Assembly (NCBI GenBank): GCA_964584895.1 | Contig: CAZPAW010000001.1 | Location: forward strand, 197,053-261,052 | Direction: 5' to 3' | DNA: 64,000 bases | Source: an uncultured Candidatus Saccharibacteria bacterium | GTDB lineage: Bacteria > Patescibacteriota > Saccharimonadia > Saccharimonadales > JAGQNJ01 | Shown: positions 7,839 through 22,934 of the stretch, one piece after another | Layout: every line of letters starts with the position of its first letter | Position numbering within the stretch: the first letter of the stretch is position 1 | Program-made: the position numbers and the translations under genes | Notes under the pieces: generated by a model | What the model was told of the DNA's origin: nothing | The model's input: only the letters and a program-made list of their open reading frames with translations | Database searches by the model: none

Positions 7839-9208
7839 ATGCTGAAAAAACTTAAACTACTGGTAATTGCTTCTATTTTGGCGGTGCCGCTAATTATATC
7901 CCCAATGCAAGCTTCTGCTGCTACAACTGTCGCAATCACATCGCCGACTACTGGTGAGGAAATAACGGGAACGAGTTTTACGGTAACTGGCACGGCAACC
8001 GCTGACAGGCTGATCACGGTATCGGTCAACGGTGACGAAGTTGGGACGACAACCTCTGACGGCTCAGGTGATTGGAGCTTAGAAGTAACCGACCAAGACG
8101 CTGGTGCAAAGACAATTACGGCTGTTGCTAGTGCCCACTACGCATACGTCACCAATGGTGGAGATGCAACTATCTCTGTTTTTGACATAAATACTGACCA
8201 GAAAGTCGGCAGCAACATCAGTAGTGGCGTCAATCAATCGAATCTTGTTGTACGCCCTGATGGCACGCAGATGGTTTCAGCCGGTGGTTTTGGTAGTACC
8301 GCACTTAGGGTTTGGGATTTGTCAGACCCCGCGGTCCCAGTCATATTCGATAGCATAGTCGCCCCTTTGGCGCACAACATGGGGTTAGCATACACGCCTG
8401 ATGGCACCGAGTTCTGGGCTGTTTCGACAAATTTTGGGGACTCACTACCATTCGCTCTTACGATGCAGACAACCCAGCGACGACAGCAGACATAACTGGC
8501 TATTCAGGTGCGGCGGGAATTGTTATTGCTTTCAATGAAGCAGGCGATAAAGCATACGTTTCGGACTGTGGCGATAGCAAGGTTCACGTCATTGATGTAG
8601 CTACAAAAGCCGAAACTAGTACTATAAATGGTGTTGGTTGTGGCGGCCTAGTAGTTGGGCCAAACGATGTGGCATTCTTGCTCGATAGTACTAACGATAG
8701 GCTTAAGCCAATAAACTTAGCTGCAGAAACAGCAGGCGCCTATATTGCGGTTGGTGATGCTCCGGGCCCAATATTTTTTAATTCTGATGGCAGCCGAGCA
8801 TATGTATCTAATACAAATAGTAACAATATTAGTGTAATTAACACCAACACAGATACGGTTGTAGATACAATTGCATTAACTGGCGGACCGTTGTCGGGTG
8901 TCTTTAACCCAGAATTTTCCAAGGTTTATATTGCAAGAAGTACTGCCGACCAAATAGTTGTTGCGGATGGAGATACGTTAGCTGAATTGTCTACTATTGC
9001 TGCAGGGGATTCCCCGACCGGTGTAAGACTAGGACCTGTCGAGTCTGCGACAGCGTCAGTTGATTTTACGCTTGCAACAGCTACTGGCACGTCATCAGAC
9101 GAGATCTTGGCTGATACTGGACAGAATACCTACATATTCTTGGCTCTTGCAAGCATGCTGTTAATTAGTCCAGCCGTTTACTTGAGAAAACGATACTCGC
9201 AAAAATAA
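7839..9208 (+). pseudogene. sortase-substrate surface protein with YVTN beta-propeller repeats, interrupted by a frameshift near 8440-8460 (frame 3 to frame 2)
   Basis: Signal peptide starts at 7839 (AAGGGG RBS). YVTN repeats continue across the break: frame 2 is open from 8402 and reads '...KAYVSDCGDSKVHVIDVATK...'. A TTTTGGGGA homopolymer sits at the switch. C-terminus is 'LADTG' + TM + 'RKRYSQK'. Confidence 0.55.
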
Positions 9209-9289
9209 TTATCTACAGTTGTTGGTTTAGCAACGTAGATTGCCAGTTAGTAGCCGGCAAGAATAAATCAGGTTTTTAGGGCATATTAA

Positions 9290-10330
9290 ATGAAAAAATA
9301 CATACATATTGCCATCCTCTTATTGTTAGTTGGAGTTAGTTTCTTTGTCATAGGGATAAATAATGCAGATAACCCAAACACAGTAACTGATACGACGACA
9401 AATACGCCGGTTCAAAGTGATGATGAAGTCCCGTCAACTCGAAAAAAAGATAAAGACGATACGTCACAATCGGTATCTAGTGATAATCTGTTTTATGATT
9501 TGGCCTCTCAAACCACTGATGTAAACATAGATAAAACTTTAATCACGTCAAGCAATTCTGATAGTGATTCGGATGATGGTGAAACTGAGGAGATTTCACC
9601 GTTGGCTGATGCCGCATTACTTTTGAGAGCATCTAATGTGCCACTGGATTGGACGGCTTCTGACGTGTGGGAAAATGAAGGTACATTAGGTGCGGTAGCC
9701 AATGCAGAAGTTAGAGATAGTATCAATGTCCCTAATAGCCATGTTGTAACACCAGAATACCTTCCCTTATTCGCAAATGGGCCAGGATTCAAAGTCGATA
9801 AACCTGACTATTCACCCCAGTATCATGGATTTGAAATCCCAGATAATGACGCATTAGATATACCTAATGCTGGCGCACTAACATTGATTTTTGACGTTAG
9901 TTTGATTGATCCGGATGATCCAACTAATAAATTAGCTCAAAAATACCCTAATATCGACTTGGGTAGTTCTGAGGAAGGTTGGATATTAGAAAATATAAAC
10001 TTGGGTGAATACGAAGGTTCAATATCACTCGTAAATGCAACAAAAGATGAAAATGGGTTTGTTGGTATTTTTACAGAACGTAGAACCACAACAGATAGAT
10101 TCACAGTAGCGATTAGATGGGATAGAGATACTGACACGCTACGGATGTTTATTAATGGGGTAGAGGATTATGTTCAGGCCAACCCCACGTTAACTACGCT
10201 TGGCGATATTAATACCGAGGCTGATTTAGTGCTGTGCGGTGGCAATGTCTTTCATAACGTGGCAATATTTGACAGAGCATTATCTGATAGTGAAATCGCA
10301 GATATAGACCAAATTTTTCGGCAAAATTAA
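9290..10330 (+). CDS. secreted/membrane-anchored protein with C-terminal LamG-like (Laminin_G_3 / concanavalin A-like) domain
   Basis: N-terminal TM. The C-terminal 'LVLCGGNVFHNVAIFDRALSDSEIADI' is the characteristic end of Laminin_G_3 domains. Confidence 0.6.
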   Translation: MKKYIHIAILLLLVGVSFFVIGINNADNPNTVTDTTTNTPVQSDDEVPSTRKKDKDDTSQSVSSDNLFYDLASQTTDVNIDKTLITSSNSDSDSDDGETEEISPLADAALLLRASNVPLDWTASDVWENEGTLGAVANAEVRDSINVPNSHVVTPEYLPLFANGPGFKVDKPDYSPQYHGFEIPDNDALDIPNAGALTLIFDVSLIDPDDPTNKLAQKYPNIDLGSSEEGWILENINLGEYEGSISLVNATKDENGFVGIFTERRTTTDRFTVAIRWDRDTDTLRMFINGVEDYVQANPTLTTLGDINTEADLVLCGGNVFHNVAIFDRALSDSEIADIDQIFRQN

Positions 10331-10427
10331 TTATCTAAATGACATAGATTAGTCATGCTGTACCTACTATTGTCATAAGCATAATTAGTGTATAATGACT
10401 CCGAATGAGGAAGAAGGAAAGAGAAAA

Positions 10428-11471
10428 ATGAAAAAATATTTATTTGGTTGGTTTAGCTTATTATTGATTGGTTTTAGTATTCTAATGCCAACAATAGCTA
10501 GCGCCGCGTCCGCAGTTGAAACCATTAGTCCAACAGCGTGGCAGCCGGCTAGCGGAGGCTTTCTTACTTTTGCTCAGGCCGGTACGTCACTTCCAAATGT
10601 CACCATAGCTTCTCGAGACACTCCGGGTACTATTATTAATCCAGGACTTGATAGTCCTGAGCCAGCTGGTGGATCGGGCAATGAATTATCAATGATAACT
10701 ATTCCGTCCGTTCTTACCACCTGTTCAAGCGATACGCCGGTTGATGTAACTTTTAGTAGCTACACACGCGAATTACAAAATGCTCAACCTGGAAACGATG
10801 AATACACAATCGTGAGTGGATTAATAGATTTGAGTGGGCCGACAATCGTTATTGATAGTTATAATCAGGATTCACTTGATACTGACGGAATGTACAGCGC
10901 ATCAGGCAGTGGACAGACTATCAGTACCACAGTCGGTAATCTTGACAACATTGTATCTTTTGTAAACTTTGAGGCTGCTACATTCTCAGGTGGAAGCCAC
11001 TATCAGGGTACTGCAGTATTAGGTTTACCAACGATTACACTTAGCTACGATAACGCTACTTGCCCATTGCCACCAACTGTTACCAGTGCTAGTGTCGCAA
11101 GGACAATAGTATCCCAGGATACTGCTTCTGGGGATGTTGTTGTTTCAGGTTCTAGCTATGGTGCTTCTGACGCCAACGAGGATACACTAACCTATAGCAT
11201 AAGTGATGGCAATGACGAAGGTTATTTCGCAATCAATTCTGATAGTGGAGATATTTCTACCACTAGAGCAAATATCCCTGTAGGAACGTACACAATGACT
11301 GTTTTGATCGATGATGGTAATGGTGGTACAGTTGAAGTGACGGTTACGATTACCGTCACAGAATCTGGCGAAGCGTTGGCCGATACTGGAGATAATACAT
11401 ATGTTTACTTGGCGATGGTTGGTGGGCTGTTGCTGGGATCCGTGGCCGTCGCTAAGAAATACTATTCTTAA
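10428..11471 (+). CDS. cadherin-like domain surface protein with LADTG sortase sorting signal
   Basis: Signal peptide. 'TYSISDGNDEGYFAINSDSGDISTTRANIPVGTYTMTVLIDDGNGG' is a cadherin-like repeat. C-terminal 'LADTGDNTYVYLAMVGGLLLGSVAVAKKYYS'. Start chosen at the Met after a GGAAGAAGGAAAGAG RBS. Confidence 0.7.
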   Translation: MKKYLFGWFSLLLIGFSILMPTIASAASAVETISPTAWQPASGGFLTFAQAGTSLPNVTIASRDTPGTIINPGLDSPEPAGGSGNELSMITIPSVLTTCSSDTPVDVTFSSYTRELQNAQPGNDEYTIVSGLIDLSGPTIVIDSYNQDSLDTDGMYSASGSGQTISTTVGNLDNIVSFVNFEAATFSGGSHYQGTAVLGLPTITLSYDNATCPLPPTVTSASVARTIVSQDTASGDVVVSGSSYGASDANEDTLTYSISDGNDEGYFAINSDSGDISTTRANIPVGTYTMTVLIDDGNGGTVEVTVTITVTESGEALADTGDNTYVYLAMVGGLLLGSVAVAKKYYS

Positions 11472-11594
11472 TAACGAACGTAAATAAAGTCATTTTCAAG
11501 AACTTGCGGAAATAAAATATTGTAAAATTTGTGTTTAAACATAAGTTAGTTATTTTTTTGGTAAACTGATAGAGGTTAATTTGTGTGAAAGTTA

Positions 11595-14537
11595 ATGTCG
11601 ATCAGAAGGAAGTGGTTTGAGTTGGGGCATTTTTTTAAGAAACTTATCTTTATCAATATTGTAGGGCTATTAGCTCTGCCATTACTGATATCAATCTTTT
11701 TGTCACAGCCTGTTCGAGCCGATATTTCATCCGGACTCACTGCCTACTATTCGTTCGACGATATTAGTGGTTCAACAGCTCCGGATAGTTCTGGCAACGG
11801 ATATGATGGAACTATAACTGGTGGTGCAGTAACAGTTAGTGGTGCTGTGGGTGATGCACTGAGTTTTGATGGAGCTGACGATACAGTAGATATTCCGCAT
11901 CAACTTCTTGCAAGCCAGACGCCAGATTTTAGCTACAGTTTTTATTTCAAAGCTGACGTTGGCGGTGACGACAGCCAATATTTGTTAGCCCAATCTAGTA
12001 GCGGAACAAATAATAACGACTGTTTTAGTGTGGCCTACGATAACGTGGCTGGGTCGCTTAAAGTATTAACAACAAATGCAGCGCAGAACGCTAGAATCAC
12101 GAGCGATATTGACGCAACCGGCTGGACCCATATTGCGGTAACGCATTCGTATTCTACGAACGAGTCTAAATTGTACATAAATGGCGTTGCACAGACTGGC
12201 TATGCTATGTCTTGTTCGCAGGCGTTAGCATCACAGTTTTTATTGGGACGTTCGCCATGGGCTGGCTACAACCAACAACTTCAGGGCTCTTTAGACGAGG
12301 TCAGGATATATAGCCGGATTTTAAGCGATGCTGATATCTACGATTTAGCCACAGCCGGTGATACTAATAGTGTATCAATAACTACACCTACTGAGGGGAC
12401 AGTTGTCCGTGGCTCTACTACACTAGAATCCAGCGTGTCTGGTTCGCCTGCTATTAGCTCGATACAATATTATGCAAACGGAGAGGCAATTGGCGCCCCA
12501 ATTGCAGACGCACCTTATTCTTACAACTGGGACACAACAGCAATTGATCAGGGCGATTATTCTATTACGGCGGTCGGTACAGATAGCAATGGTGATGCAG
12601 TACCGTCTTTAGCGTTAAATGTAGTAGTAGATAATGACCCAGTGATAAACATGAATAATACCAAAAGTATTCAGCAAACTACGGCTGAAATTGTATGGGT
12701 AACGGATGAACAAACCAACGGCCAGATTGAATATGGTTTAACAAGTTCTTATGGCTCACAGAGTGATCTGGTAAGTGACCTAAGTTATTACCACAACCAT
12801 CAATTAACAAATTTATTACCTAATACTACCTATCATTATCAGATTATCTCTCAGGACAATTTTGGTAATGAGGTTACGTCTGGTGATCTGACTTTTTCAA
12901 CCATAACGGATGTAGCCGGTAATCAATGGCATGTCACAACTGATGGGACGTCTGGAGGTGATGGTTCCATTGAAAACCCGTGGGATTTGGCTACTGCCTT
13001 GGCTCAGCCTCTCAGCGTTCAACCGGGCGATACAATTTGGGTTCATGCTGGTACGTATGCCGGTGTTTTTACTAGTACATTAACCGGGACAGCGAGTTCA
13101 CCTATTGTTCTGAGAAACTATAATAACGAGCGAGTAATTATAGATGGAGAGAGCTCTAATAGTAGCGTCATCACGGTATACGGTGCTTATACCTGGTATT
13201 GGGGACTAGAGGTAATCAACTCTGATATGACTCGAACAATAGAGCAGGCGGGTTCTAATCCGATCACGTTACCTCGTGGTCTTGGTTACTACGTTTTAGG
13301 CCCAGGCACTAGATTCATAAATAATGTTGTTCATGATACCGCGGAAGGTTTTGGGTTTTGGACGCCGGCCACAAACTCAGAATTATATGGAAATATCGTG
13401 TACTACAACGGCTGGGAAGGCCCAGATAGGGGGCATGGCCATGGGCTTTATGTACAAAATAATACTGGGCTTAAAAATCTAACAAATAATATTGTATTTA
13501 AAAATTTCGGCTACGGACTGCACGCTTATACAGAGGGCGGGACGCTACACAATATTCTAACTGATAGCAATGTATTTTTTAGTAATGGCGCGCTATCCAA
13601 CACTGGTTACACACAAAATATGCTTCATGGTGGGTATACGGTAGCTAATAATCCGATGATTTTTAACAATAGGGTCTACTCACCTATCGCGTTGGGTGGT
13701 GGTCTAGGTATCGGCTATGCTGCCGGTTGCAACACGCCGACAATAGAAGGTAATTATATTGTCTCGCATTCAGCATTTGATCTTAGTTCAGACTGTAGCC
13801 ATAACATGGTTTCTGGCAATACTTTTTATGGTTCGTATCCTGGCTCGGCCCCAACAAACTACCCAGATAACGAGTATTTTAATGTTACAGTCCCCACAGT
13901 TAATAATGTATATGTGGCACAGAATTATTATGAACCCACAAAATCTTACGTAACAATATATAACTGGGAGGATTTGTCGAGTGTTGATGTGGATGCATCA
14001 AGTGTATTAGAAGCAAATGATACTTATGCGGTTTATGACACACAGGATTATTTTGGTGAATCAATAACTACTGGTACTTTTTCTGGTACGACACTAGCTG
14101 TGCCAATGACAACTACCGGGCTAACAGATACGGTGGGTGTAGTGCCTGTTGCCCCGACACATACTAGTGAAGAATTCGGTTCGTTTATTTTAGTTAAGAC
14201 TGGGCATACCGATCCAGTGCCAGATGAAGAGATTGAAACACCTGTCGATAATAATTCGTCAAATGATTCAGTATCTTCTGAGGCTGATGAATCTGTACAA
14301 ACATCGTTAGCTAGCATTTTATTTACTAGCTCTAATTTGGGTTCGCAAAAACCTGAAAAAAGCGAAGACGTATCCAACCAAGACGGATCTCCTTTACTAG
14401 AAAATGACCAAGACAAGAACAATTCAAATACTAGCTCAGAAAAAAACAAAGGATTTGGTGATTTACAAAAAGTTTTGGGCTTTGCTTTTGTGTTGGTAAT
14501 AATCACAGGTTTATTATGGAGAGTATTTATACATTAA
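11595..14537 (+). CDS. 980-aa surface protein: LamG-like, Ig-like, Fn3/purple-acid-phosphatase-N-like and right-handed beta-helix domains, then a C-terminal TM anchor
   Basis: 'LDEVRIYSRILSDADIYDL' (Laminin_G_3). 'TAEIVWVTDEQTNGQIEYGLTSSYG...TTYHYQI' (Fn3-like). Repeated 'N.I..N.G.G' beta-helix turns. Acidic Ser-rich linker and hydrophobic C-terminus. Confidence 0.7.
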   Translation: MSIRRKWFELGHFFKKLIFINIVGLLALPLLISIFLSQPVRADISSGLTAYYSFDDISGSTAPDSSGNGYDGTITGGAVTVSGAVGDALSFDGADDTVDIPHQLLASQTPDFSYSFYFKADVGGDDSQYLLAQSSSGTNNNDCFSVAYDNVAGSLKVLTTNAAQNARITSDIDATGWTHIAVTHSYSTNESKLYINGVAQTGYAMSCSQALASQFLLGRSPWAGYNQQLQGSLDEVRIYSRILSDADIYDLATAGDTNSVSITTPTEGTVVRGSTTLESSVSGSPAISSIQYYANGEAIGAPIADAPYSYNWDTTAIDQGDYSITAVGTDSNGDAVPSLALNVVVDNDPVINMNNTKSIQQTTAEIVWVTDEQTNGQIEYGLTSSYGSQSDLVSDLSYYHNHQLTNLLPNTTYHYQIISQDNFGNEVTSGDLTFSTITDVAGNQWHVTTDGTSGGDGSIENPWDLATALAQPLSVQPGDTIWVHAGTYAGVFTSTLTGTASSPIVLRNYNNERVIIDGESSNSSVITVYGAYTWYWGLEVINSDMTRTIEQAGSNPITLPRGLGYYVLGPGTRFINNVVHDTAEGFGFWTPATNSELYGNIVYYNGWEGPDRGHGHGLYVQNNTGLKNLTNNIVFKNFGYGLHAYTEGGTLHNILTDSNVFFSNGALSNTGYTQNMLHGGYTVANNPMIFNNRVYSPIALGGGLGIGYAAGCNTPTIEGNYIVSHSAFDLSSDCSHNMVSGNTFYGSYPGSAPTNYPDNEYFNVTVPTVNNVYVAQNYYEPTKSYVTIYNWEDLSSVDVDASSVLEANDTYAVYDTQDYFGESITTGTFSGTTLAVPMTTTGLTDTVGVVPVAPTHTSEEFGSFILVKTGHTDPVPDEEIETPVDNNSSNDSVSSEADESVQTSLASILFTSSNLGSQKPEKSEDVSNQDGSPLLENDQDKNNSNTSSEKNKGFGDLQKVLGFAFVLVIITGLLWRVFIH

Positions 14538-14608
14538 TAATCAAAAAAATATGCAAATTTTACTTCTTGAGAATAAGTACTTATGGTAATATTAACCTAA
14601 GGAAAACT

Positions 14609-17203
14609 ATGGTAGAGTCAGATAATTTTTCAGCAGATTGGTCGCAGTTACTTGATGATATGCCCCACGAACCAGGGGCAGTAGTATCTCCGCATACTCA
14701 ACCCATAACGGCCGGTGCAACTAACTCTGGCGAAATACCAATAAGCTCTAATTTTGCAACAACCAGCAAATCAAGTAGCAATAATAGCGGTACTTCATCT
14801 AGTAGCTTTGGCTCGTCAAAAAATGGCAATAATAAAGGACGCTTCCCTTGGTGGATGTTGTTGCTGTTGTTGCTGTTATTGGGTGGTTCTGCTAGCGCCG
14901 CTGCTGGCTTTAATCCAATATATAGAGCTTTGAAAGTAGTAGGTATAGAAGGCAGAGACGGCAAGGATGGAAACGACGGTCAAGATGGAATAGATGGCCA
15001 GAACGGCAAAATAGTTAAACAAACGAACATAGTAGCGTCGGGCGTTTCAGGATCAGGTTCTGGTGCTGATGGCGCAGACGGTTCAAATGGCGCAGACGGT
15101 GCTGATGGTGCAGATGGCGCCAAAGGCGACACCGGTACGCCTGGTTCTAACGATTGTATCTCTGGTATATGTGTCTCCCGCCAATCTACTACACCCGGCA
15201 CTCAGGAGACTGGCAATATTAACATTGATGGCGCAGTGCTAGCAGCCCAAGTTGGCATCAACGACACGACACCGAGTAACACCCTTACTGTTGACGGCAC
15301 TGTGGATGTTTCTGGTCACTCGGCATTCGGCGGTGCAGCGGTAGACGGATATGTATCTGGTTCTGATGGACTATCGGGCACCTCATCGAGCCTCACAACA
15401 ATGACAGTTAGTGAAGAAATCACATCAATAACTGGGTCAGGCGTCAATCGTCAAGCCCTTGCTGCGGTACTTAAACTCAACCCTGGAGCTGCGCCAGTCT
15501 ATAATCAGATTAACGGTGTCGGCGGTGGTGTCGAAATAGCTTCAGGGAATACGCAGAATTTTACAGGTAATTTAGCTGGTTATGGTGGCGGATTCATACA
15601 CTCTGGGACTGGTACAGTCAATTCTGGCACGTCATTTAACGCCGGCATGCTAAACCTATCTACGGGCACTGTAAGTACTGCAAATGCATTTAATTCAAAT
15701 ATCATTAACCTGAACGCGGGAGGTACTGTAACAAATGCTCACGGACTTCAGACCAATGTTATTAACTTAGGCACAATAACCAATAATTACGGTATAAAAA
15801 TTAATACTCCAACAAACGGTGGTACAGTTACCAATAATTATGGACTGTATGTCGCTGATCAGTCTTCGGTGGGCTCGACAATTTCATTGAATCTGGTTTC
15901 TGCAGGCCTTACCTCTAATAACTGGTTTCAAGGAAGTGTTGGTATAGGGAATATAACTGGACCACTAGATGGACACGTCCACATTGTCAACGATGGAAGT
16001 GGAAATAGCTTTAAAGTCAGCGATACAGCCTATGGAGACACCTCGCCGTTTGTGATTGATTCAGATGGAGATGTAGGCATAGGCACTGCTACCCCTGGAT
16101 ACAAGCTCGATGTCAATGGTGGTGCACGCATGAGCAGTATCAATAATATTACTGGAGATGATTTTTACATTAATAGTGGAGGAAATCAGGTACACATTGC
16201 TGGAAATGGCGGCACAGCATTTAGAGTATACAGTGGTGGCTCAGCGCTTCCGGCTGCATCTGCTTTTGCGGTTGATGCTGCTCAGACAGGGTTGCTGGTA
16301 AAAGGCGCTGCATCACAATCGGCAAATCTTCAGGAGTGGCAGAATTCTATAGGAACTGTACTTAGTTCCATCGATGAGAACGGCTACCTTGGAATCGGAA
16401 CGTCTGATCCTCAGTACGAATTACATATTTCTCAAAACGCTACATGGGCAACGTCGCTTGGGATAACCCAAACGACTTCTGGCAAAACCCTTAACCTATC
16501 TACTACTGGCGGTGCTACAAACAGTTGGAACTTAGAGAACGCAAGTGGCCTACTATACTTCTACAACACTTCACTTTCAGAGACCTCACTTGAGCTTCAA
16601 GATAATGGTAATGTTGGTATAGGCACAAACTTTGGTAGTGCTGGCGCAAAATTGCATGTAAAAGAAGACACCGACACAAATGTGCTGCGATTACAAGACA
16701 GTGATGGTACTTGCGACCTTAATCCAGAATCGGGCTCACTAACAACGACGTGTTCATCCGACGAACGCCTAAAGTCTAACATTCGTGAGGCGGCCAGTGT
16801 GTTGGGTGAAATTAACGGCCTAAAGATTCGTGACTACACTGTTGCTGCCGGTGGACAAGAAACTACCGGCTTGATCGCCCAAGAAGTTTTAGAGACTAAC
16901 CCAGAAATGGTACACATGGGCGAAGATGGCTACTACAAAGTAGACAGCTACAACCCCTGGAAGGTACTAAAGGGGGTCCAAGAACTCAGTGCAAACATCG
17001 ATAATTTACAATCAACGTTTACAACTGCACTAGAGCAAACTAACGGAAACCTTGAAAAAACAAACCAAACGCTTGCTAACTTAGGTTTACGTGTTGACGA
17101 CTTGTCTGCTACTCTTCAAAACTATGCCGATCAATTGTCTGACCACAATCAGAGAATCCAAAGCCTAGAAGCAAAGGTTCAAGAACTAGAACAGGCTAAC
17201 TAG
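14609..17203 (+). CDS. membrane-anchored collagen-repeat, tail-fibre-like protein with C-terminal S74 (endosialidase-chaperone) intramolecular-chaperone domain and coiled coil
   Basis: TM 'WWMLLLLLLLLGGSASAAAG'. G-X-Y tracts 'GIEGRDGKDGNDGQDGIDGQNGK' and 'GADGADGSNGADGADGADGAKGDTGTPG'. Three 'VGIGT..P..KL.V' tail-fibre motifs. 'SDERLKSNIREA...GLKIRDYT' S74 motif, then heptad repeats. Start at the Met after an AAGGAAA RBS; the ORF is open from 14516. Confidence 0.7.
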   Translation: MVESDNFSADWSQLLDDMPHEPGAVVSPHTQPITAGATNSGEIPISSNFATTSKSSSNNSGTSSSSFGSSKNGNNKGRFPWWMLLLLLLLLGGSASAAAGFNPIYRALKVVGIEGRDGKDGNDGQDGIDGQNGKIVKQTNIVASGVSGSGSGADGADGSNGADGADGADGAKGDTGTPGSNDCISGICVSRQSTTPGTQETGNINIDGAVLAAQVGINDTTPSNTLTVDGTVDVSGHSAFGGAAVDGYVSGSDGLSGTSSSLTTMTVSEEITSITGSGVNRQALAAVLKLNPGAAPVYNQINGVGGGVEIASGNTQNFTGNLAGYGGGFIHSGTGTVNSGTSFNAGMLNLSTGTVSTANAFNSNIINLNAGGTVTNAHGLQTNVINLGTITNNYGIKINTPTNGGTVTNNYGLYVADQSSVGSTISLNLVSAGLTSNNWFQGSVGIGNITGPLDGHVHIVNDGSGNSFKVSDTAYGDTSPFVIDSDGDVGIGTATPGYKLDVNGGARMSSINNITGDDFYINSGGNQVHIAGNGGTAFRVYSGGSALPAASAFAVDAAQTGLLVKGAASQSANLQEWQNSIGTVLSSIDENGYLGIGTSDPQYELHISQNATWATSLGITQTTSGKTLNLSTTGGATNSWNLENASGLLYFYNTSLSETSLELQDNGNVGIGTNFGSAGAKLHVKEDTDTNVLRLQDSDGTCDLNPESGSLTTTCSSDERLKSNIREAASVLGEINGLKIRDYTVAAGGQETTGLIAQEVLETNPEMVHMGEDGYYKVDSYNPWKVLKGVQELSANIDNLQSTFTTALEQTNGNLEKTNQTLANLGLRVDDLSATLQNYADQLSDHNQRIQSLEAKVQELEQAN

Positions 17204-17262
17204 CGTATACTTCACAGCCCCTATTATTATTGCTAGAATATAGATAAGAGAGGACAAAAATA

Positions 17263-17775
17263 ATGGATGATTTTAAACGTGTTGATGTAACTACAAAACC
17301 TAAGGTTCCGAGTCCCACAACCGAGAAGAAAGTAAAAAAGCCTGGGAAAAAGCGTCGTCTGCCGAAAGCAAGCACGATTATCATTACGGTACTATTATTT
17401 GCCCTAGCTGGTGGCGGATATTATTTTTACAGTAAATATAGCGAAACAAAACAAGAGGTAGAAAAACTGTCTACTGTTCAAGGCCAACAGGAACTTAACA
17501 AATCCCAGACGGAGCAACTGCTAAGTGAAATGCGTAGTATCATAGTCCTACCTGCTGGGGAGGACCCCGTTGTGGCTACAATTACTGACATAAATCAGCT
17601 CAAGAAAAACGAATTCTACAAGGACGCACAAGATGGAGACCGGGTCATCGTCTTTGCTACCGCCAAAAAGGCATATATTTACAGGCCTAGCACAAGAACC
17701 ATAGTAAATGTAGGCGCTTTTCAGCTAGATCAACAAAGCCAAAAACAACCCAGCCAAGACAATACCACTAATTAG
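17263..17775 (+). CDS. small membrane-anchored hypothetical protein (basic N-terminus, one TM, extracellular tail)
   Basis: 170-aa ORF with AGGAC-type RBS. 'KKVKKPGKKRRLPK' followed by a TM. Sits between two giant surface-protein genes. Confidence 0.5.
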   Translation: MDDFKRVDVTTKPKVPSPTTEKKVKKPGKKRRLPKASTIIITVLLFALAGGGYYFYSKYSETKQEVEKLSTVQGQQELNKSQTEQLLSEMRSIIVLPAGEDPVVATITDINQLKKNEFYKDAQDGDRVIVFATAKKAYIYRPSTRTIVNVGAFQLDQQSQKQPSQDNTTN

Positions 17776-17834
17776 AAAGCCTTTTCTGGCTACTTTCAAG
17801 TTTTGACGTAAGCGTTTCTATAGTATAATTAAAC

Positions 17835-20800
17835 ATGAATCAGAGGGTTATGATAAAGACATTGTCAAAACATAAAAAATATTTGTTTTTCGGCATAATA
17901 ATGTTGGTTGTTTTTGCCGTGCCAATTACAAGGGTAAATGCTGCTGCAACCATTACTGTAAATTCTACAGCCGATGACCAAAATAATGATGGAGAATGTA
18001 CCCTAAGGGAAGCCATAGTTGCATCAAATACAGACACAGCTTCAGGTGCTGCAGTCGGTGAATGTACTGCTGGTTCTGGCGCCGACACAATAGAATTTGA
18101 TATCTCAGGGACTGGCTTGAAGACGATCCATATATCCTCCGGGATGCCGACTATCACTCGAACTGTTACGATTGATGGCTATACTCAGACTGACGCTGTT
18201 GTTAATAATGCTGACTTCCCTGATGCGATGAATGGTACTTTAACTGTCGAGATTGATGCCGCCGGAGAATCTGGCATATATGGCTTTGATATTAATGGCA
18301 GCCAGGCTGATGGGACTGTGATAAAAGGACTGATCGTTAATGATATCCCGTACGAAACATTCTATTTGACTGACGTTGATAACGTATCTTTGGAGGGCAA
18401 CTATATCGGTACGAGTTCAACCGGTACTGTGGCTGATGGTGGTAGCTCACACGGTGTTCGAATTGGCGGCAGTTCTACCGGCAATATGATTGGTGGTGCC
18501 ACGGCCGCAAAACGAAATGTCATATCAGGCAACGGGAACACAGGTGTATTATTTTATGGATCTGCGCTAACAACGGGTAATTTTGTGCAAGGTAATTTCA
18601 TAGGCGTTGGGGCAGATGGAACAACAAGAATCGGTAATTCTCAGCAAGGCGTAGCCTCGTCAGAGGGTCCAACCGGTAACATCATCGGTGGTGATGGAGT
18701 TGGTGAGGGGAACGTAATTTCTGGTAACGGTGGGATAGGTGTTTACTTGTCGGGTACGGGTGGTGCTAATACAGTGCAAGGTAATCATATTGGGACAAAC
18801 GCCGCAGGTTCGGCCGGTGTCTATAATGGTCAGGGCGGAATTGTTGTGTCAAACGCAGATAGTAATACCATTGGTGGTTCAATAGTTGGTGCGCGTAATG
18901 TTATATCTGGAAATTCCGCCCACGGCATTTCGATTATCGATGATTCTGATAATAACGATATATCTGGGAACTATGTTGGTGTTGGCAGTGATGGATCTAC
19001 CGCAATGCCTAACGGAGTTCACGGATTACTCATTGAAGGCGGTTCTGGAAGCAACACGATTGGCGGGACTTCATCTGGTGAACGTAATATTATATCTGGC
19101 AATAGTGAAGCTGGGGTCTTTATATCGGGTCCGACTGTAAATTCAAATATTGTACAGGGTAATTATATCGGTACAGACGATACTGGTGCTGTAGACGTTG
19201 GTAATGGATCATACGGGCTAGTATTGGACAATTCGCCATCTAATACTGTTGGCGGTACAACAGGAGTAACTGTTGGTGGTGATTGTACGGGTTCTTGTAA
19301 CGTAATATCTGGGAATGGCGATGATGCTATATGGCTATATGGCGATAGCGCAGATAATAATGTAATAAAAGGCAATCACATTGGCACAAACGTAGCTGGA
19401 ACGGGAGACTTAGGTAATGGCGGTAGAGGTGTCAATATCACATTTAGTGCTGATGGAACCTTAGTCGGAGGCACAACCGCAAGCGACGCTAATCTAATCC
19501 GATTTAACGATGTCAGGGGTGTTTCGATACCGAATTCTGGCTCGATCAATAATGCGATTATCGGTAACTCTCTATATCAAAATGCTATATCAAATATTGA
19601 TCTTTCTGAGGATGGTGTGACAGCAAATGATGCTAATGATGCTGACAACGGACCAAATGACCTACTTAACTACCCAGAGTGGGGGCTATTTGATGACGAT
19701 AGTGGCGACACCGAAGTAACATATGATCTAGATGTTCCGGCTGGCGATTACCGGATAGAAACATTTAGTGATAATGGAAAAACTTTAGTTGATTCACAAA
19801 ATATTACGCACACTGGCTCAGGAGCAGAAAGTTTTTCCAACACTATTACGGGCAATAATTATTCAAACCTTCGAATGACTGCAACAGAGATTGATGGTGG
19901 ATTGTCCAGTGGTTTTGGATCAACTAGCGAATATAGCGAAGCATACTCTGATGGTACAGAAATAATTACCGTAAACTCTACAGCTGACGATAGTAATGAT
20001 GATGGCGAATGTACCTTGCGCGAAGCCATAACTGCAGCTAATGATAATACTGAATCTGGGATAAGTGACGGCGAGTGTATTGCTGGTGCTGCGACTGATA
20101 CCATAGAATTTGATATTGCAGGTGCTGGACCGCACACGATTCAGCCAGGCGCAGCCTTGCCATCGATAACAGCAGACGGTACGACCATTAATGGCTATAG
20201 TGAAACAGGAGCAGTAGAGAACTCTGGTGACTATAGTGCATGTTTTGTAGGTACGATCATGATAGAAATCGATGGTCAAAATGCCGGTAGCGTATCTGGG
20301 CTGACAATTTCTGCTGAGAATGTGACAATCAGAGGTCTGGCAATCAACAGATTTACATATAGTGGAGTTTATATAGGGTCAGCGAGTGGTACGGTAGTTG
20401 CAGGGAATATTCTTGGACTTGATGACGCAGGGTTGGTTGACCACGGTAATGGCGATGCTGGTGTTGACATAAGAAGTACTGGGGATACTTTGATTGGTGG
20501 TACGACTGCTGCAGATCGGAACCTAATCTCCGGTAATGAAGGGTTTGGCGGGATAAGTTCTTATGCAGATACAGGCACGATAACAATTAGTGGGAATTGT
20601 ATCGGCACTGACGCAACTGGTGATACTGCAATCCCGAATAACCATAGCGGGATTAATTTATATCAAGCCGAGGCGAATATGGTTATCGGCGGCGACACCA
20701 CTCACGAGCGCAATATTATATCTGGTAACGACGAAAACGGTATCAGCATTTCAGAGAGTAATGTGGGTGATATAAAAGGCAACTATATCGGAGTGGATGC

Positions 20801-22934
20801 GGATGGTGAGGCTGATTTGGGCAATGGCATGAGCGGAATATCGGCTGACGCTACTTCCAGCGTGTCCTATATTGGTGGGCTAACTAGCGGAGAGCGTAAT
20901 ATTATATCTGGTAACGACAGCGATGGTATATATTTGGCCGATGGAACTGGCGATACCAGAATCCGCGGTAACTACATTGGCGTTGATGCTACAGGGGCAG
21001 TAGACCTAGGTAATACAGATGATGGAATAATTGCTGGCTCGACCGACATTATTATCGGTGGAACAGCAAGTGGAGCACGAAACGTTGTATCCGGGAATGG
21101 TGCAGAGGGTATAGAATTATCTTCTACCGCAACAACTGCTTTGGTCCAAGGTAATTATATTGGACTTAGCGCTAGTGGCAGTAGCGGTATCGGGAATACT
21201 AATATTGGTCTTAGCACAATGGGTATCAATACGATAGTTGGCGGTACGGCAAGCGGGGCAGAAAATGTCGTCTCAGATAACGGTGCTGGTGGAATTTCGG
21301 TCGATGGCGACGATACGACAGTAATCGGAAACCTAGTCGGAACAAGCGCAGATGGCTTGAGTGAAATTGGCAATACTAGTGTTGGTATTAAATCTGGTGG
21401 TGACAATGTAATTATTGGCGGAGATTCAGCCACCGAGCGTAATGTAGTAGCCGGCACAATAGTAGGTGGAAATTATGCTGGATCAGGTATCGTTCTGCTC
21501 AGTTTTGGATCAGGCGGAAGTGGTGGGGTTGTTAAGGGTAATTACGTTGGGACAAATATTAACGGTACAGTTGGTGGCGGGTTTGGCAACGGCGGATTCG
21601 GAATATTCGCAATCGGGGACTATTCAAATGGAGTTATCGGCGGTACAGCTAGTGGCGAGGGTAACAAAGTTGTGAGTAGCGGAATGAACGGAATAGGCGC
21701 GAACGGGTTCGCTGGCTTTGGTCTGTACACGAATAATATATCAATCTTAGGTAACCAAGTATATCAAAGTACCTCGACCGGCATTAGATTAATGGCAGAT
21801 ACTAATGGTGATTTTCAACCTGATACTCCGATTCCGTTCCCCAATGATGCGGGCGATGGTGATGTTGGGCCTAATGATTATCTTAACTTCCCAGTTCTTA
21901 ATAGTTCTTCGGCTTCTGCGGGCTCGTTGGATGTTAATTTTGATCTAGATATTCCTAATACTAATACTGGAGTAACCGGCTATAGACTAGAGTTTTTTGC
22001 TAACGACACAGGTGATGCGTCCGGTAATGGCGAGGGGCAGATATATCTTGGTTCGGCAAATGTGTCAGGAGATGTATCAAGCCATTCGGAGACAATAACT
22101 TTAGATCCTGGTGTCATCACCACCGGTGACTACGATATTTCGGCAACTGTCACTGAAATCGATGGTAGTGCTGATGGGTTTGGATCGACTAGCGAGTTTA
22201 GTGCATTCCTAGATAACCAAGAGATTATTCAGCCACTAGATAATGACGATGACGGAGTCAATGATGCTGTTGAAGATGCTGGCCCTAATGGTGGCGATGG
22301 TAATGACGATGGAACGCAGGATAGTGAACAAGCTAGCGTGGCAACAATTCTTGATGCCGAAAGCGACGATTACGTTACACTAGCACTTGATTCGGCTGGC
22401 GTGTGCGATCAGATAGATGATTTTGCATCAAAGCTTGAAAGCGAGCTATCTGAATCTGACCCTGACTTTATCTATCCGCTAACACTAGTAGAATTTACTA
22501 TTCCGTGTGAAGACAGCGTAGATGGAACATTATTCTGGCACGGCGAGGAAGAGTTCACTACTCAAATCTATCGTAAATTTGGCCCGACCACACCTGGCGA
22601 TGTTTCTTCGACAAGTTGGTACACGTCTGAACAATTTATAACGAGCACTGTAGATATTGACGGGAATGCTACAGCAACAGCTTCATTTACGTTGACCGAT
22701 GGTGAAGCAGGTGACGATACAGGCAATGATAATGTAATTGTAGATGCCAATGGTCCAGGCCTAGAAGTAGAAACAACTGACTCTGTAGTAGATAGTATCT
22801 CTAGCGCTGTATCAGACGCACTGTCGGCTACTGGAATGAACCAATACGGCATTTATGCAATAGCCGGCGCGTTAATTATCGGTGGATCGGTGTTTATTGT
22901 AAAACGAAAGTATCAAAGCAGAACTTCAAAGTAA
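17835..22934 (+). CDS. 1699-aa giant surface protein: two CTLREA-type N-terminal modules plus long parallel beta-helix (PbH1/NosD-like) repeat arrays, with C-terminal LSATG sorting signal
   Basis: Signal peptide. 'DGECTLREAIVASN' at residue ~50 and again at ~720. Dozens of 'N.ISGN...G(I/V)' beta-helix repeats. C-terminal 'LSATGMNQYGIYAIAGALIIGGSVFIVKRKYQSR'. Confidence 0.75.
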   Translation: MNQRVMIKTLSKHKKYLFFGIIMLVVFAVPITRVNAAATITVNSTADDQNNDGECTLREAIVASNTDTASGAAVGECTAGSGADTIEFDISGTGLKTIHISSGMPTITRTVTIDGYTQTDAVVNNADFPDAMNGTLTVEIDAAGESGIYGFDINGSQADGTVIKGLIVNDIPYETFYLTDVDNVSLEGNYIGTSSTGTVADGGSSHGVRIGGSSTGNMIGGATAAKRNVISGNGNTGVLFYGSALTTGNFVQGNFIGVGADGTTRIGNSQQGVASSEGPTGNIIGGDGVGEGNVISGNGGIGVYLSGTGGANTVQGNHIGTNAAGSAGVYNGQGGIVVSNADSNTIGGSIVGARNVISGNSAHGISIIDDSDNNDISGNYVGVGSDGSTAMPNGVHGLLIEGGSGSNTIGGTSSGERNIISGNSEAGVFISGPTVNSNIVQGNYIGTDDTGAVDVGNGSYGLVLDNSPSNTVGGTTGVTVGGDCTGSCNVISGNGDDAIWLYGDSADNNVIKGNHIGTNVAGTGDLGNGGRGVNITFSADGTLVGGTTASDANLIRFNDVRGVSIPNSGSINNAIIGNSLYQNAISNIDLSEDGVTANDANDADNGPNDLLNYPEWGLFDDDSGDTEVTYDLDVPAGDYRIETFSDNGKTLVDSQNITHTGSGAESFSNTITGNNYSNLRMTATEIDGGLSSGFGSTSEYSEAYSDGTEIITVNSTADDSNDDGECTLREAITAANDNTESGISDGECIAGAATDTIEFDIAGAGPHTIQPGAALPSITADGTTINGYSETGAVENSGDYSACFVGTIMIEIDGQNAGSVSGLTISAENVTIRGLAINRFTYSGVYIGSASGTVVAGNILGLDDAGLVDHGNGDAGVDIRSTGDTLIGGTTAADRNLISGNEGFGGISSYADTGTITISGNCIGTDATGDTAIPNNHSGINLYQAEANMVIGGDTTHERNIISGNDENGISISESNVGDIKGNYIGVDADGEADLGNGMSGISADATSSVSYIGGLTSGERNIISGNDSDGIYLADGTGDTRIRGNYIGVDATGAVDLGNTDDGIIAGSTDIIIGGTASGARNVVSGNGAEGIELSSTATTALVQGNYIGLSASGSSGIGNTNIGLSTMGINTIVGGTASGAENVVSDNGAGGISVDGDDTTVIGNLVGTSADGLSEIGNTSVGIKSGGDNVIIGGDSATERNVVAGTIVGGNYAGSGIVLLSFGSGGSGGVVKGNYVGTNINGTVGGGFGNGGFGIFAIGDYSNGVIGGTASGEGNKVVSSGMNGIGANGFAGFGLYTNNISILGNQVYQSTSTGIRLMADTNGDFQPDTPIPFPNDAGDGDVGPNDYLNFPVLNSSSASAGSLDVNFDLDIPNTNTGVTGYRLEFFANDTGDASGNGEGQIYLGSANVSGDVSSHSETITLDPGVITTGDYDISATVTEIDGSADGFGSTSEFSAFLDNQEIIQPLDNDDDGVNDAVEDAGPNGGDGNDDGTQDSEQASVATILDAESDDYVTLALDSAGVCDQIDDFASKLESELSESDPDFIYPLTLVEFTIPCEDSVDGTLFWHGEEEFTTQIYRKFGPTTPGDVSSTSWYTSEQFITSTVDIDGNATATASFTLTDGEAGDDTGNDNVIVDANGPGLEVETTDSVVDSISSAVSDALSATGMNQYGIYAIAGALIIGGSVFIVKRKYQSRTSK

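Follow-up and report, generated by a model that had tools for sequence, protein, structure and literature searches.

The window analysed here, a stretch of 64,000 nt (positions 197,053-261,052 of contig CAZPAW010000001.1, assembly GCA_964584895.1) from an uncultured Candidatus Saccharibacteria (TM7) bacterium, carries at 14609..17203 a gene for a fibre protein of 864 amino acids plus stop codon. This gene and all other features of the window given with coordinates below lie on the plus strand. The reading frame is open over 14516..17203, corresponding to 895 amino acids, and an ATG at 14516 would add 31 residues. We preferred the start at 14609 because it is preceded at a distance of 7 nt by the Shine-Dalgarno sequence AAGGA, whereas a start at 14516 overlaps the upstream gene. 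MVE(S/T)DNF is also the N-terminus of most homologues, and the start assumed in an earlier sequence-only reading of this DNA is thus the better one. The encoded protein comprises, in this order, a hydrophilic N-terminus, a hydrophobic segment, two G-X-Y tracts, a neck with two cysteines, a beta shaft, loop motifs and an S74 chaperone.

Alignment of homologues delimited the hydrophilic N-terminal region (aa 1-78, 14609..14842), presumably a cytoplasmic tail, in which a conserved acidic and aromatic motif, DNFSADWSQLLDD, is followed by a Ser/Asn/Gly-rich linker. The motif WSxL(I/L)D(D/E) was also found in the proteins P0075, P0076 and P0080. The residues K/K/R directly precede the hydrophobic segment FPWWMLLLLLLLLGGSASAAAGF (aa 79-101, 14843..14911), which is the sole stretch exceeding 1.6 in a Kyte-Doolittle window of 19 aa (maximum 2.08) and is present in all 19 aligned homologues. 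After its Leu run the same alignment revealed a conserved GG(S/T)ASAxAG, which could be taken for a signal peptidase I site, and the segment may serve as a type II signal anchor or be cleaved off as a signal peptide. The single hydrophobic segment of the N-terminal transmembrane anchor originally proposed was thus found, and it is a putative anchor.

Two collagen-like tracts, defined by triplet counts and alignment, follow with 8 G-X-Y triplets in aa 112-135 (14942..15013) and 10 in aa 152-181 (15062..15151). G-X-Y runs of at least 7 triplets occurred in only 3 of 2000 shuffled sequences. The glycines of the tracts are invariant over 19 homologues while X and Y vary: G121, G124 and G127 are invariant in tract 1, with G130 and G133 nearly so, and in tract 2 every Gly from G155 to G179 is invariant. 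The DNA of tract 2 contains a 9/18-nt tandem repeat (15061-15117). Both tracts had been recognised from the sequence and were borne out here; the search with the Pfam model Collagen (PF01391) gave a divided answer, with 19.8 bits for the fibre protein, below the cut-off of 27.2, and scores above it for homologues (29.3 bits for P0075), most of the family being so annotated in precomputed results. The tracts of the fibre protein itself are short and Pro-poor.

The neck module (aa 180-212, 15146..15244), SNDCISGICVSRQ..PGTQExGNINIDGxxLA, was defined by invariant columns, among them C183 and C188. It is rare: the region aa 176-260 was matched by only 44 representative proteins among 1.84 billion (E<1e-3). 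A VKOR gene within the window is consistent with disulfides being formed outside the cytoplasm by the conserved Cys pairs.

Residues 213-716 (15245..16756), delimited by identity comparisons, DNA similarity and PHROG matches, form a variable shaft and tip and would constitute the mature fibre distal to the neck. The long Gly/Thr/Asn-rich beta region noted before lies here, between neck and chaperone. Within it, aa 270-410 (15416..15838) adopt a beta-solenoid-like fold in the AF2 monomer model and are its sole part with a pLDDT of 65-88, the mean of the whole model being 47.8. The motif TNNYGLY(I/V)xDQS in this region is shared with the fibre-like proteins P0023 and P0027, which lack an S74 domain. 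The three copies of a tail-fibre motif that had been described were clearly recognisable. Copy 1, VGIGTATPGYKLDV (V489-V502, 16073..16114), aligns to the Bdellovibrio fibre Bd1334 (8on4), copy 2, LGIGTSDPQYELHI (L594-I607, 16388..16429), was identified by motif reading, and copy 3, VGIGTNFGSAGAKLHV (V669-V684, 16613..16660), the last before the chaperone, lacks the Pro and has a 2-residue insertion. Two degenerate copies of VGIGT..P..KL are located at V215 and V444. The motif region aligns to the solved structure 8on4 with E 7.7e-4 and to 8ond (Bd2133) with E 1.3e-5, all three motif copies of 8ond matching copy 3, and the tail-fibre family phrog_5668 matches aa 335-806 (E 1.5e-14). The 11 best Foldseek matches were fibres of the Bdellovibrio MAT family, none of them significant (E of 0.023 or higher) for a query model of this poor quality.

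The C-terminal S74 intramolecular chaperone (aa 717-864, 16757..17200) was assigned by Pfam, invariant residues, structure alignments, helices and heptads. PF13884 (Peptidase_S74) matched aa 717-768 over profile positions 1-57 of 58 with 34.8 bits (gathering score 22, E 2e-8), so that this model supports the S74 domain, and phrog_5668 the tail-fibre character, assigned from the sequence. The expected Ser-Lys dyad is present in the motif S717-D-E-R-L-K722, of which S717, D718, R720, L721 and K722 are invariant in alignments of 19 and of 12 homologues; SSDERLK of the fibre aligned with SSDRRIK of 6f45 and ASDERLK of 8jov, in agreement with the catalytic motif S-D-x-x-x-K (PMC10769870). The predicted scissile bond is S716|S717. 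Just ahead of it lies an invariant pair, Cys702...Cys715 (16712..16753), which also occurs in P0020, an S74 protein outside the family. In the chaperone part, the AF2 model showed strands at 725-778 and helices at aa 782-863. The heptads of aa 826-864 have hydrophobic residues at 8 of 11 a/d positions, a count reached in none of 5000 shuffles, and the only indel of the family in this region comprises exactly 7 residues, one heptad; the protein thus ends in a coiled coil (...ELEQAN). The chaperone of endosialidase K1F (endoNF) has about 150 aa including its helical bundle. As the 148 aa from S717 to N864 correspond to a complete chaperone of normal size, the heptad coiled coil, previously seen as following the S74 domain, does exist but belongs to the chaperone and is no added element. 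Family membership suggests that the fibre trimerises and cleaves itself.

Immediately upstream, at 11595..14537, Pfam, precomputed annotations and locus comparison revealed a surface protein of 980 aa with a signal peptide, a Laminin_G_3 lectin-like domain, Big_7, an FN3-like domain, a parallel beta-helix and a C-terminal transmembrane segment; the beta-helix is annotated as Pel9A-like in this protein and its orthologues. These orthologues directly precede the fibre gene in loci L002, L010, L011 and L013 (62-85% identity) and are absent in L014 and L015, so it is in the nearer relatives that lectin/beta-helix protein and fibre are linked. Downstream, at 17263..17775, locus comparison and AF2 identified a partner gene for a single-pass membrane protein of about 170 aa with a basic N-tail, a transmembrane segment continued as a long helix, and a small beta ectodomain. 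It lies directly 3' of the fibre gene in the window and in 7 of 8 other loci with a visible downstream gene (L002, L004, L010, L011/L012, L013, L014 and L015/L016; absent there in L005). Its AF2 model reached a pLDDT of 72 overall and >90 in the ectodomain, and a fold search with this model gave no match. One source names a homologue of this protein 'RodZ'.

The window consists throughout of housekeeping or surface-protein genes, including Mur ligase, Dus, DivIC, S26 signal peptidase, FtsH, MurJ, LepA, HrcA-GrpE-DnaK-DnaJ and sortase. Pfam and PHROG scans of its 46 ORFs of at least 150 aa detected neither capsid nor terminase, portal or integrase. Phage genes for structure, lysis or integration are missing from the 14 kb upstream and the 47 kb downstream of the fibre gene, and neither the window nor the surroundings of the gene in seven homologous loci showed a cluster of genes for phage structure, packaging, lysis or integration. 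The homologues in the genome collection all belong to Saccharibacteria or Patescibacteria. In Candidatus Saccharibacteria genomes they occupy the same chromosomal locus, with neighbours kept where flanking proteins are 62-85% identical, and the locus with DivIC and Dus nearby is kept even in lineages with only 32-43% fibre identity. The closest phage matches, annotated as tail fibre, are 25-31% identical and restricted to aa ~460-817, that is, the distal 40%; three IMG/VR loci match only aa 708-804, at 33%. That the gene belongs to a prophage is contradicted by the 64 kb of housekeeping and surface-protein genes and by the locus shared among Saccharibacteria. The tail-fibre architecture is thus located among cellular genes as first described, and the search for flanking capsid or terminase genes had a negative outcome in the ORFs scanned. 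Of the domesticated trimeric fibre postulated at that time, the non-phage chromosomal locus is substantiated, while the direction of a phage-to-cell transfer is not established by these data.

Comparison of related loci revealed a mosaic organisation of the fibre gene. The fibre and its counterpart in L013 share 97% identity over residues 1-212 (96.4% in the DNA, for 673 nt) and the flanking genes 79-85%, and the centre is unrelated, with no DNA similarity between L013 and the window within 15244-16756. Likewise, P0008 reaches 97% identity in the first 212 aa and only 15-27% in aa 213-716; P0002 shows a pattern opposite to that of L013 with its nearly identical N-terminus. At the 5' side, DNA similarity stops at 15243 for L013 and L010, at 15263 for L002 and at 15302 for L011, and for L013 and L011 it restarts exactly at 16757, the S717 codon. 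Between close relatives two handles are 90-100% identical and the distal 500 aa are replaced. By these comparisons the conserved handles are the anchor-collagen-neck part (aa 1-212) and the chaperone from S717 onwards, and aa 213-716 vary among related strains in the manner of an exchangeable cassette. The breakpoints are the end of the neck, which marks the 5' boundary of the cassette, and the S717 codon.

The neck also defines a rare wider family carrying other tips. On the same TM-collagen-neck scaffold we found S74, FGE-sulfatase/DGR, PF11962-like and other tips. The sister proteins P0081 and P0091 combine this scaffold with a C-terminal FGE-sulfatase-like domain (GFRVAR). Adjacent to such a lectin-like tip lie genes for a reverse transcriptase and bAvd as well as a VR/TR pair of 111 nt whose differences are mostly adenine-specific, and P0081 accordingly has the features of a DGR target (reverse transcriptase, Avd, template repeat). 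RVT and Avd gave no match among the ORFs of at least 150 aa in the window; the diversity of the fibre described here comes from cassette exchange, not from mutagenic retrohoming. Shaft and tip exchange as well as DGR-diversified sister tips are signatures of ligand-recognition arms races.

With its domain composition, catalytic motif, conserved chromosomal locus, mosaic exchange and linked partner gene, the locus probably encodes a surface-exposed homotrimeric fibre of Candidatus Saccharibacteria which is built on phage tail-fibre principles and inherited chromosomally. The best reading is a cell-surface trimeric adhesin that sets host specificity. Sec would insert its chain such that the N-terminus stays in the cytoplasm and everything else comes to lie outside, the hydrophobic segment serving as a type II anchor. 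Outside the cell, three S74 domains with their coiled coil would align three chains and nucleate the folding of the shaft, an interdigitated beta-helix; folding would proceed towards the N-terminus as far as the two short collagen triple helices, which are probably locked by the two-Cys neck. The S717/K722 dyad would then cut S716|S717, release the 148-aa chaperone and expose the distal tip. The resulting mature fibre (aa ~102-716), standing on a collagen stalk of about 15 nm (54 residues x 0.286 nm per residue), would remain on the surface and bind a surface structure of the host bacterium bearing the epibiont. Specificity would reside in aa 213-716, the apparently exchanged cassette, which is flanked by a conserved handle on either side.

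The fibre is therefore a candidate means of host recognition by tiny Saccharibacteria epibionts. Only tentatively do we extend this proposal to a family of cell-anchored trimeric fibres peculiar to Saccharibacteria, and to Patescibacteria at large, in which a collagen-stalked TM-collagen-Cys-neck scaffold would carry interchangeable receptor-binding ends, namely phage-type S74 cassettes, DGR-mutagenised lectin tips and others. In the lineage studied here, the S74 fibre would then be the primary determinant of the host bacterium to which the epibiont can attach. It would act together with the 170-aa membrane protein and with the linked lectin/beta-helix protein, which is depolymerase-like, and cassette exchange between strains would re-target it; a phage-like adsorption apparatus would thus have been built into the cell. 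None of the terms S74, collagen and endosialidase occurs in the annotation tables of Southlakia epibionticum, a cultivated epibiont, indicating that such a fibre is no universal requirement of the epibiotic lifestyle.

Alternatively, the fibre might be secreted, with the hydrophobic segment as a cleavable Sec signal peptide of unusually long, conserved n-region and a mature start near AAGFNPIYRALKVVGIEG. As cleavage of the segment requires other means of retention if the fibre is not to be released, it would have to be held by, for example, the 170-aa membrane protein or the cell wall. We regard this as less likely than anchoring, albeit as the strongest competitor. It agrees with the helix-breaking GG and the conserved A-S-A motif after the Leu run, with the short basic n-region and textbook signal peptide (VGVSA|QSG) of P0002 and P0078, with the regular position of the membrane protein gene 3' of the fibre gene, and with the Bdellovibrio MATs, in which the signal peptide is cleaved and docking falls to a separate N-terminal domain (PMC10769870). 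However, the 78-aa N-terminal region with its WSxL(I/L)D(D/E) is kept at 52-100% identity despite the diverging shaft, which would be odd for a discarded leader. In the wider family, moreover, the N-terminal hydrophobic helices are long (17-21 aa), followed by charged residues and devoid of an A-x-A motif, as is typical of uncleaved anchors; this favours true anchors.

More doubtful still is a structural role in the envelope, as for example a spacer, a sheath or a tether between cells or at the division site, instead of a host-recognition adhesin. The collagen-like BclA-type surface filaments of Bacillus are structural, DivIC is encoded close to the locus in both lineages, and the name 'RodZ' given to the partner homologue would suit such a role. 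From a purely structural role, however, one would expect neither that close relatives differ in the entire distal 500 aa while their handles are nearly identical, nor that sister proteins bear DGR-diversified lectin-fold tips. Finally, a tail fibre of a phage, tailocin or contractile injection system, either a prophage remnant or acting in trans for a particle whose genes lie elsewhere, is very improbable: phage tail fibres typically have an S74 chaperone, collagen-like tracts and the VGIGT loop motif, and the PHROG and phage-database matches are all annotated as such, but the surroundings free of phage genes, the locus and neighbours kept across lineages and the low, distally confined identity to phages speak against it, and a Sec-type hydrophobic leader would be incompatible with cytoplasmic virion assembly, to which extracytoplasmic-type Cys pairs would also be unsuited.

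For the surface-anchored adhesin preferred here, the nearest known system, N-terminal module apart, is the S74 fibres among the Bdellovibrio MATs, for which surface location, autocleavage (Bd3182 S782A) and involvement in the handling of prey were published (PMC10769870). Like the fibre described here, the MAT fibres (Bd3182; 8ONC, 8OND, 8ON4) are encoded by chromosomal genes of a bacterium living on other bacteria, have a C-terminal S74 chaperone with SDxxxK and give direct sequence matches. Both share the capping-loop motif V-G-x-G-x-x-x-P-x-x-K-L of a phage-like beta-helical shaft; of the MAT form, V-G-(G/N)-pi-x-x-P-x-x-x-L, the fibre has three clear copies, its trimeric beta-helix being predicted only. 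The MAT family likewise combines a conserved N-terminal module with mosaic exchangeable tips, including non-S74 ones (PMC10769870). Beyond loop motif and S74 domain, no sequence similarity was detectable. All 21 MATs possess a cleaved signal peptide and a common, conserved beta-rich docking domain of ~130 aa and lack collagen (PMC10769870), whereas in the fibre a hydrophilic N-tail is followed by the hydrophobic anchor or leader and then by the two collagen tracts and the two-Cys neck; compared with this published description, no MAT N-domain follows the hydrophobic segment, as aa 102-212 consist of G-X-Y and Cys neck. The organisms also differ in phylum (Patescibacteria versus Bdellovibrionota), probably in envelope type, and in copy number, with one fibre per locus versus 21 paralogues in Bdellovibrio.

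Phage tail fibres and tailspikes with S74 chaperones (K1F endosialidase, the L-shaped fibre pb1 of T5, the long tail fibre 6F45 of S16, 8JOV) have the same auto-cleaving chaperone with Ser-Lys dyad and helical bundle, preceded by a trimeric beta-helix as proposed here, and many contain collagen-like tracts. Their modular logic is alike: attachment end and chaperone are conserved, and the receptor-binding part varies. Unlike the fibre, they lack a signal peptide or transmembrane segment and are assembled cytoplasmically onto a baseplate; the fibre gene in turn lacks phage neighbours, is vertically conserved in a cellular lineage and is at most 31% identical to any deposited phage.

In the eukaryotic protein MyRF (myelin regulatory factor), the membrane anchor is C-terminal, and cleavage sets free the transcription factor that forms the N-terminal part. 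In the fibre, by contrast, the anchor would be N-terminal and only the chaperone released, hence no signalling role is implied. MyRF (7DC3), which is membrane-associated and uses its S74/ICA domain for trimerisation and self-cleavage, gave a weak profile match (E 0.14), and the same loop motif was reported for it (PMC10769870). Scl1/Scl2 of Streptococcus and BclA of Bacillus resemble the fibre in that a collagen triple-helix stalk presents a distal domain, globular or fibrous, on the surface. Scl proteins differ by their C-terminal LPXTG anchor and N-terminal variable domain; no LPXTG sorting signal was found at the C-terminus of the fibre, and the Scl1/Scl2 models of NCBIfam (NF038329/NF038330) matched the G-X-Y tracts weakly, with 25.8 and 21.1 bits, far below their cut-offs of 325 and 400 bits. 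The likeness to animal type II transmembrane collagens is one of architecture only. The DGR-diversified surface proteins of CPR bacteria with C-type-lectin/FGE-sulfatase fold are connected to the fibre through P0081 and P0091, which share its scaffold and carry the lectin-like tip where the fibre has S74.

The gene at 14609-17203 (+ strand) likely encodes a Sec-exported, collagen-stalked homotrimeric S74 fibre, probably anchored at its N-terminus, which would be an adhesin for host recognition whose specificity cassette can be exchanged. In the ORF list, the frame is open over 14516-17203 (+ strand). An AAGGA ribosome-binding site precedes the start at 14609 by 7 nt, while the alternative ATG at 14516 lies within the tail of the gene before it; in the alignment, most homologues begin with MVE(S/T)DNF. 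The 864-aa product is high in Gly (14%), Ser, Thr and Asn and comprises an anchor, collagen and neck region (aa 1-212), a shaft and tip cassette (aa 213-716) and an S74 chaperone (aa 717-864).

The sole hydrophobic segment of the protein is found at aa 79-101, directly after K/K/R. The N-terminal region includes the peptide NPIYRALKVVGIE and the WSxLLDD tail, and the conserved acidic/aromatic motif DNFSADWSQLLDD (window 14609-14660, aa 1-17; consensus WSxL(I/L)D(D/E)), located before the leader or anchor, is common to distant family members. We lean towards a retained anchor. A cleaved signal peptide is a possible alternative, as a conserved GG(S/T)ASAxAG after the Leu run resembles a signal peptidase I site and the short-leader members of the family resemble classical signal peptides. 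This alternative is at odds with the conserved motif at the extreme N-terminus and with the helices of the wider family, which are long and look uncleavable. The N-terminal membrane anchor claimed previously is thus upheld as a single hydrophobic segment, but its retention is less certain given the possible cleavage site that follows.

Two collagen-like tracts had also been proposed and were recovered as 8 and 10 consecutive G-X-Y triplets, with Gly columns unvarying over 19 homologues; a run of at least 7 triplets arose in 3 of 2000 shuffles. The Pfam Collagen model, suggested as a check, was passed by homologues, whereas the window protein scored 19.8 bits and stayed below the cut-off of 27.2. 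Cys183 and Cys188, directly after the last G-X-Y triplet, are invariant, as are Cys702 and Cys715, which bracket 12 residues before the predicted cleavage position. Together with VKOR (vitamin K epoxide reductase family), which is encoded in the window, these pairs make extracytoplasmic disulfides plausible. The VKOR gene (59309-59902, + strand) occupies an unusual position between dnaK and dnaJ of the hrcA-grpE-dnaK-dnaJ cluster and is relevant to disulfides in Cys-bearing surface proteins.

The presence of an S74 intramolecular chaperone was confirmed by Pfam, with PF13884 (Peptidase_S74) matching aa 717-768 at 34.8 bits against a gathering score of 22. S717, D718, R720, L721 and K722 do not vary among the homologues, and the C-terminal profile matches solved phage chaperones with the motif aligned (SSDRRIK in 6f45, ASDERLK in 8jov), so that the expected Ser-Lys dyad is found in S717 and K722; MyRF was matched as well, weakly. 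Three clear copies of the tail-fibre loop motif VGIGTxxPxxKLxV were found as claimed, together with two degenerate ones. The heptad coiled coil noticed at the C-terminus is likewise real by two measures, a significant heptad periodicity of the terminal helical region and a sole indel in the family of exactly seven residues. From S717 to N864 the domain has 148 aa, as long as a full S74 chaperone such as that of endosialidase K1F (endoNF), and the coiled coil therefore belongs to the S74 domain and is not an addition to it. By homology, cleavage between S716 and S717 would free the 148-aa chaperone once the trimer is folded. Bd3182 and phage proteins contain an SDxxxK motif with chaperone and protease function, and substitution of the serine by alanine blocks their cleavage (PMC10769870).

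The only direct PDB sequence match of the whole fibre, obtained via the loop motif, was 8on4 ('cell wall surface anchor family protein'), listed in the Foldseek table as the Bdellovibrio fibre Bd1334; the fibre profile also matches Bd2133 (8ond), with three motif copies aligned. The mosaic adhesive trimeric (MAT) fibres of Bdellovibrio are chromosomally encoded, surface-exposed trimeric adhesins of a predatory bacterium, whose tips are of S74 and non-S74 type and which have a consensus capping loop (PMC10769870); cell-borne S74 fibres are thereby already established. MAT fibres possess a conserved domain rich in beta structure, ~130 aa long, after the signal peptide, whereas the window fibre has in its place the hydrophilic tail, hydrophobic segment, collagen tracts and neck. 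Because this defining domain is missing, strict MAT membership was rejected, and the protein would act like a MAT S74 fibre from outside that family. Scl-type membership was rejected in membership tests as well. The phage proteins matched are all annotated tail fibres, but they are 25-31% identical and cover only aa ~460-817; the PHROG tail fibre family phrog_5668 spans aa 335-806. An AF2 monomer model of the full fibre (19-sequence alignment) had a mean pLDDT of 47.8 and was confident only at aa 270-410, and its low pLDDT and monomeric nature do not allow fold and trimer to be confirmed. Foldseek found no PDB match to this low-confidence model at E <= 0.001; the best 11 matches were all MAT fibres, none significant, a ranking which is suggestive only.

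Scanned with Pfam, the 46 ORFs of the window with 150 aa or more gave cellular families, namely Mur ligase, ABC transporter, Dus, NUDIX, DivIC, S26 signal peptidase, histidine kinase, MFS, TilS-like PP-loop, FtsH, MurJ, LepA, adenylate kinase, HrcA-GrpE-DnaK-DnaJ, VKOR and sortase, and none for capsid, terminase, portal, tail, lysis, integrase or reverse transcriptase. PHROGs added nothing phage-like among the neighbours of the fibre gene. The reading as a prophage gene was therefore rejected for this window, in agreement with the cellular setting proposed before. Large surface-protein genes follow each other in a row at 9.3-25.5 kb, and the G+C content at 8000-26000 is 0.41-0.46, compared to 0.34-0.40 in most other bins, which may reflect proteins rich in Gly, Ala and Thr or a foreign origin. 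As promoter and terminator sites at 9-26.5 kb were fewer than in shuffles, no operon boundaries were drawn; Rfam identified three tRNAs only in the window.

In a scan of one genome per species, relatives of the fibre occurred only in uncultured Candidatus Saccharibacteria assemblies and one 'Patescibacteria group bacterium', and the 19 full-length homologues (777-1132 aa) have an identical architecture. Homologous loci were read only where long contigs exist. In L002, L010, L011/L012 and L013, the gene of a lectin/beta-helix protein (62-85% identical to that encoded at 11595-14537) is followed by the fibre gene and that of a ~170-aa single-pass membrane protein (62-79% identical to the window partner at 17263-17775); in L011, this order is kept though the wider neighbourhood differs. 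A distant lineage represented by the homologues P0018/P0019, with fibres 32-43% identical to that of the window, lacks the upstream protein and retains the pair of fibre and 170-aa protein, again near DivIC and Dus. The pair is present in the window and in 7 of 8 other loci with a visible downstream side, L005 being the exception. The fibre locus is thus old and chromosomal and no mobile island. With the lack of phage genes, this supports the cellular surface fibre of the sequence-only reading, apart from the anchor, for which the cleaved leader is a competitor. The module may have passed from phage to cell, as domestication would imply, or in the opposite direction.

Identity along the fibre protein is strongly block-wise among homologues. 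P0008 matches the window fibre at 100% identity over aa 1-120 and at 82-90% from there to aa 200, drops to 10-57% over aa 201-720 (15-27% at aa 241-560) and climbs back to 85-91% over the final 100 residues. P0002 differs in the leader and is 97-100% identical over aa 281-600 and 85-100% up to aa 720, and P0005 shows 90% at the N-terminus, 17-47% in the centre and 82-95% in the distal part. At the DNA level, the upstream gene of L013 is 86.8% identical to that of the window and the 5' end of the fibre gene (14571-15243) 96.4%, above its flanks; positions 15244-16756 gave no alignment, and similarity restarts at 16757 with 68%. The neck (aa 212) ends at 15244, and the S717 codon begins with base 16757. 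Comparison with L002, L010 and L011 placed the breaks at 15243-15302 and 16706-16786, the same two places. With breaks at these two points, the replaced unit is what is predicted as the mature fibre beyond the neck, and the anchor-collagen-neck region and the chaperone are conserved recombination handles. Such replacement is the pattern expected of a receptor-binding protein pressed to change specificity. A purely structural role is hard to reconcile with it. An IMG/VR scan returned three loci, all matching the S74 domain only with 33% identity, and no Saccharibacteria phage source of the cassette was found there.

Among 1.84 billion representative proteins, only 44 matched the neck (aa 176-260) at E<1e-3. 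Those whose neck is equally placed possess a hydrophobic helix at the N-terminus plus collagen tracts, and their ends differ: S74 domains (P0075, P0076, P0078, P0080), FGE-sulfatase-like lectin folds terminating in GFRVAR (P0081, P0091), a tip whose DLAEKY... segment is similar to the PF11962-annotated P0022 (P0102) and other beta tips (P0085, P0093, P0109). An RVT_1 gene and bAvd are found near the P0081 gene in locus L018 (GCA_002793885.1, PFEG01000042.1; 338-2512, 3888-4379, 4412-4522, 4738-5094). A repeat pair of 111 nt with 79% identity links the 3' end of the target gene (VR, 2399-2509) to a template beside the reverse transcriptase gene (TR, 4412-4522), and the differences are almost all at template adenines. 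By these sequence hallmarks, the locus is a diversity-generating retroelement (DGR). Since the neck carries both exchanged S74 cassettes and DGR tips, one display scaffold is joined to two ways of diversifying tips. The window fibre itself was rejected as a DGR target, as no reverse-transcriptase family was found in the scanned window ORFs.

The means by which ultrasmall epibiotic CPR bacteria locate and grip specific host bacteria are largely unexplained, the candidates in the literature consulted being type IV pili and a few glycan-binding surface proteins; the fibre locus is a concrete further candidate. In the literature searched, neither S74 nor endosialidase-chaperone nor collagen fibres were linked to Saccharibacteria or Patescibacteria, and fibres of this kind were not described from Saccharibacteria or CPR (Candidate Phyla Radiation) bacteria; the supplementary annotation tables of the cultivated Southlakia epibionticum listed no S74, collagen or endosialidase-chaperone term. 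The S74 fibre seems to be confined to a subset of Saccharibacteria, probably environmental ones. It shares its design logic with phage receptor-binding proteins and the prey-recognition fibres of Bdellovibrio, with aa 213-716 as a sharply bounded specificity cassette exchanged in nature. If the adhesin reading is true, host range could be predicted from metagenomes by cassette typing, and recombinant cassettes could be used to fish hosts of uncultivated Saccharibacteria. This would be a second, independent bacterium-on-bacteria lifestyle with S74 tail-fibre modules on its own surface, and the TM-collagen-neck scaffold, common with DGR-diversified proteins, would tie two known diversification strategies to one platform.

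The 170-aa partner forms a family of its own with 38 database clusters; Pfam gave sub-threshold matches only and NCBIfam none. Its AF2 model shows a confident small beta ectodomain, and no Foldseek match was better than E 0.64. Distant relatives of 222-233 aa carry an additional C-terminal LytR_C-type domain (PF13399), and one source labels a homologue 'RodZ'. A role in docking or assembly would be a guess. The 980-aa upstream protein had no match in the PDB sequence search, and its Pel9A-like beta-helix comes from precomputed tables and was not reproduced by our own Pfam scan.

Downstream, a giant surface protein of 1699 aa (17835-22934, + strand) without Pfam match bears two CSLREA N-terminal domains (TIGR04214, 65 bits, 2 stretches) as well as a choice-of-anchor U domain. 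Its aa ~711-1120 duplicate aa ~40-456 with 42% identity, NVISGN-type beta-helix repeats are visible, and the C-terminus ...LSATGMNQYGIYAIAGALIIGGSVFIVKRKYQSRTSK resembles a variant sortase sorting signal; a sortase gene is located at 61048-61713. The S26 signal peptidase (26656-28230, - strand) has 524 aa with the catalytic domain only at aa 342-514, and its N-terminal extension of ~340 aa matched no family. Unexpectedly for a bacterium, a 435-aa protein (62597-63904, + strand) matched Pfam MATCAP (microtubule-associated tyrosine carboxypeptidase) with 47.3 bits against a cut-off of 27, over the short stretch of aa 246-296 only. In NCBIfam, the ORF at 7776-8495 (+ strand) resembles a PGS Ig-like domain and the CPR pilus system protein PamR only weakly and below threshold, PamR with 23 bits where the cut-off is 300; in L010 and L013, one 465-aa gene covers the counterparts of this ORF and that at 8669-9208.
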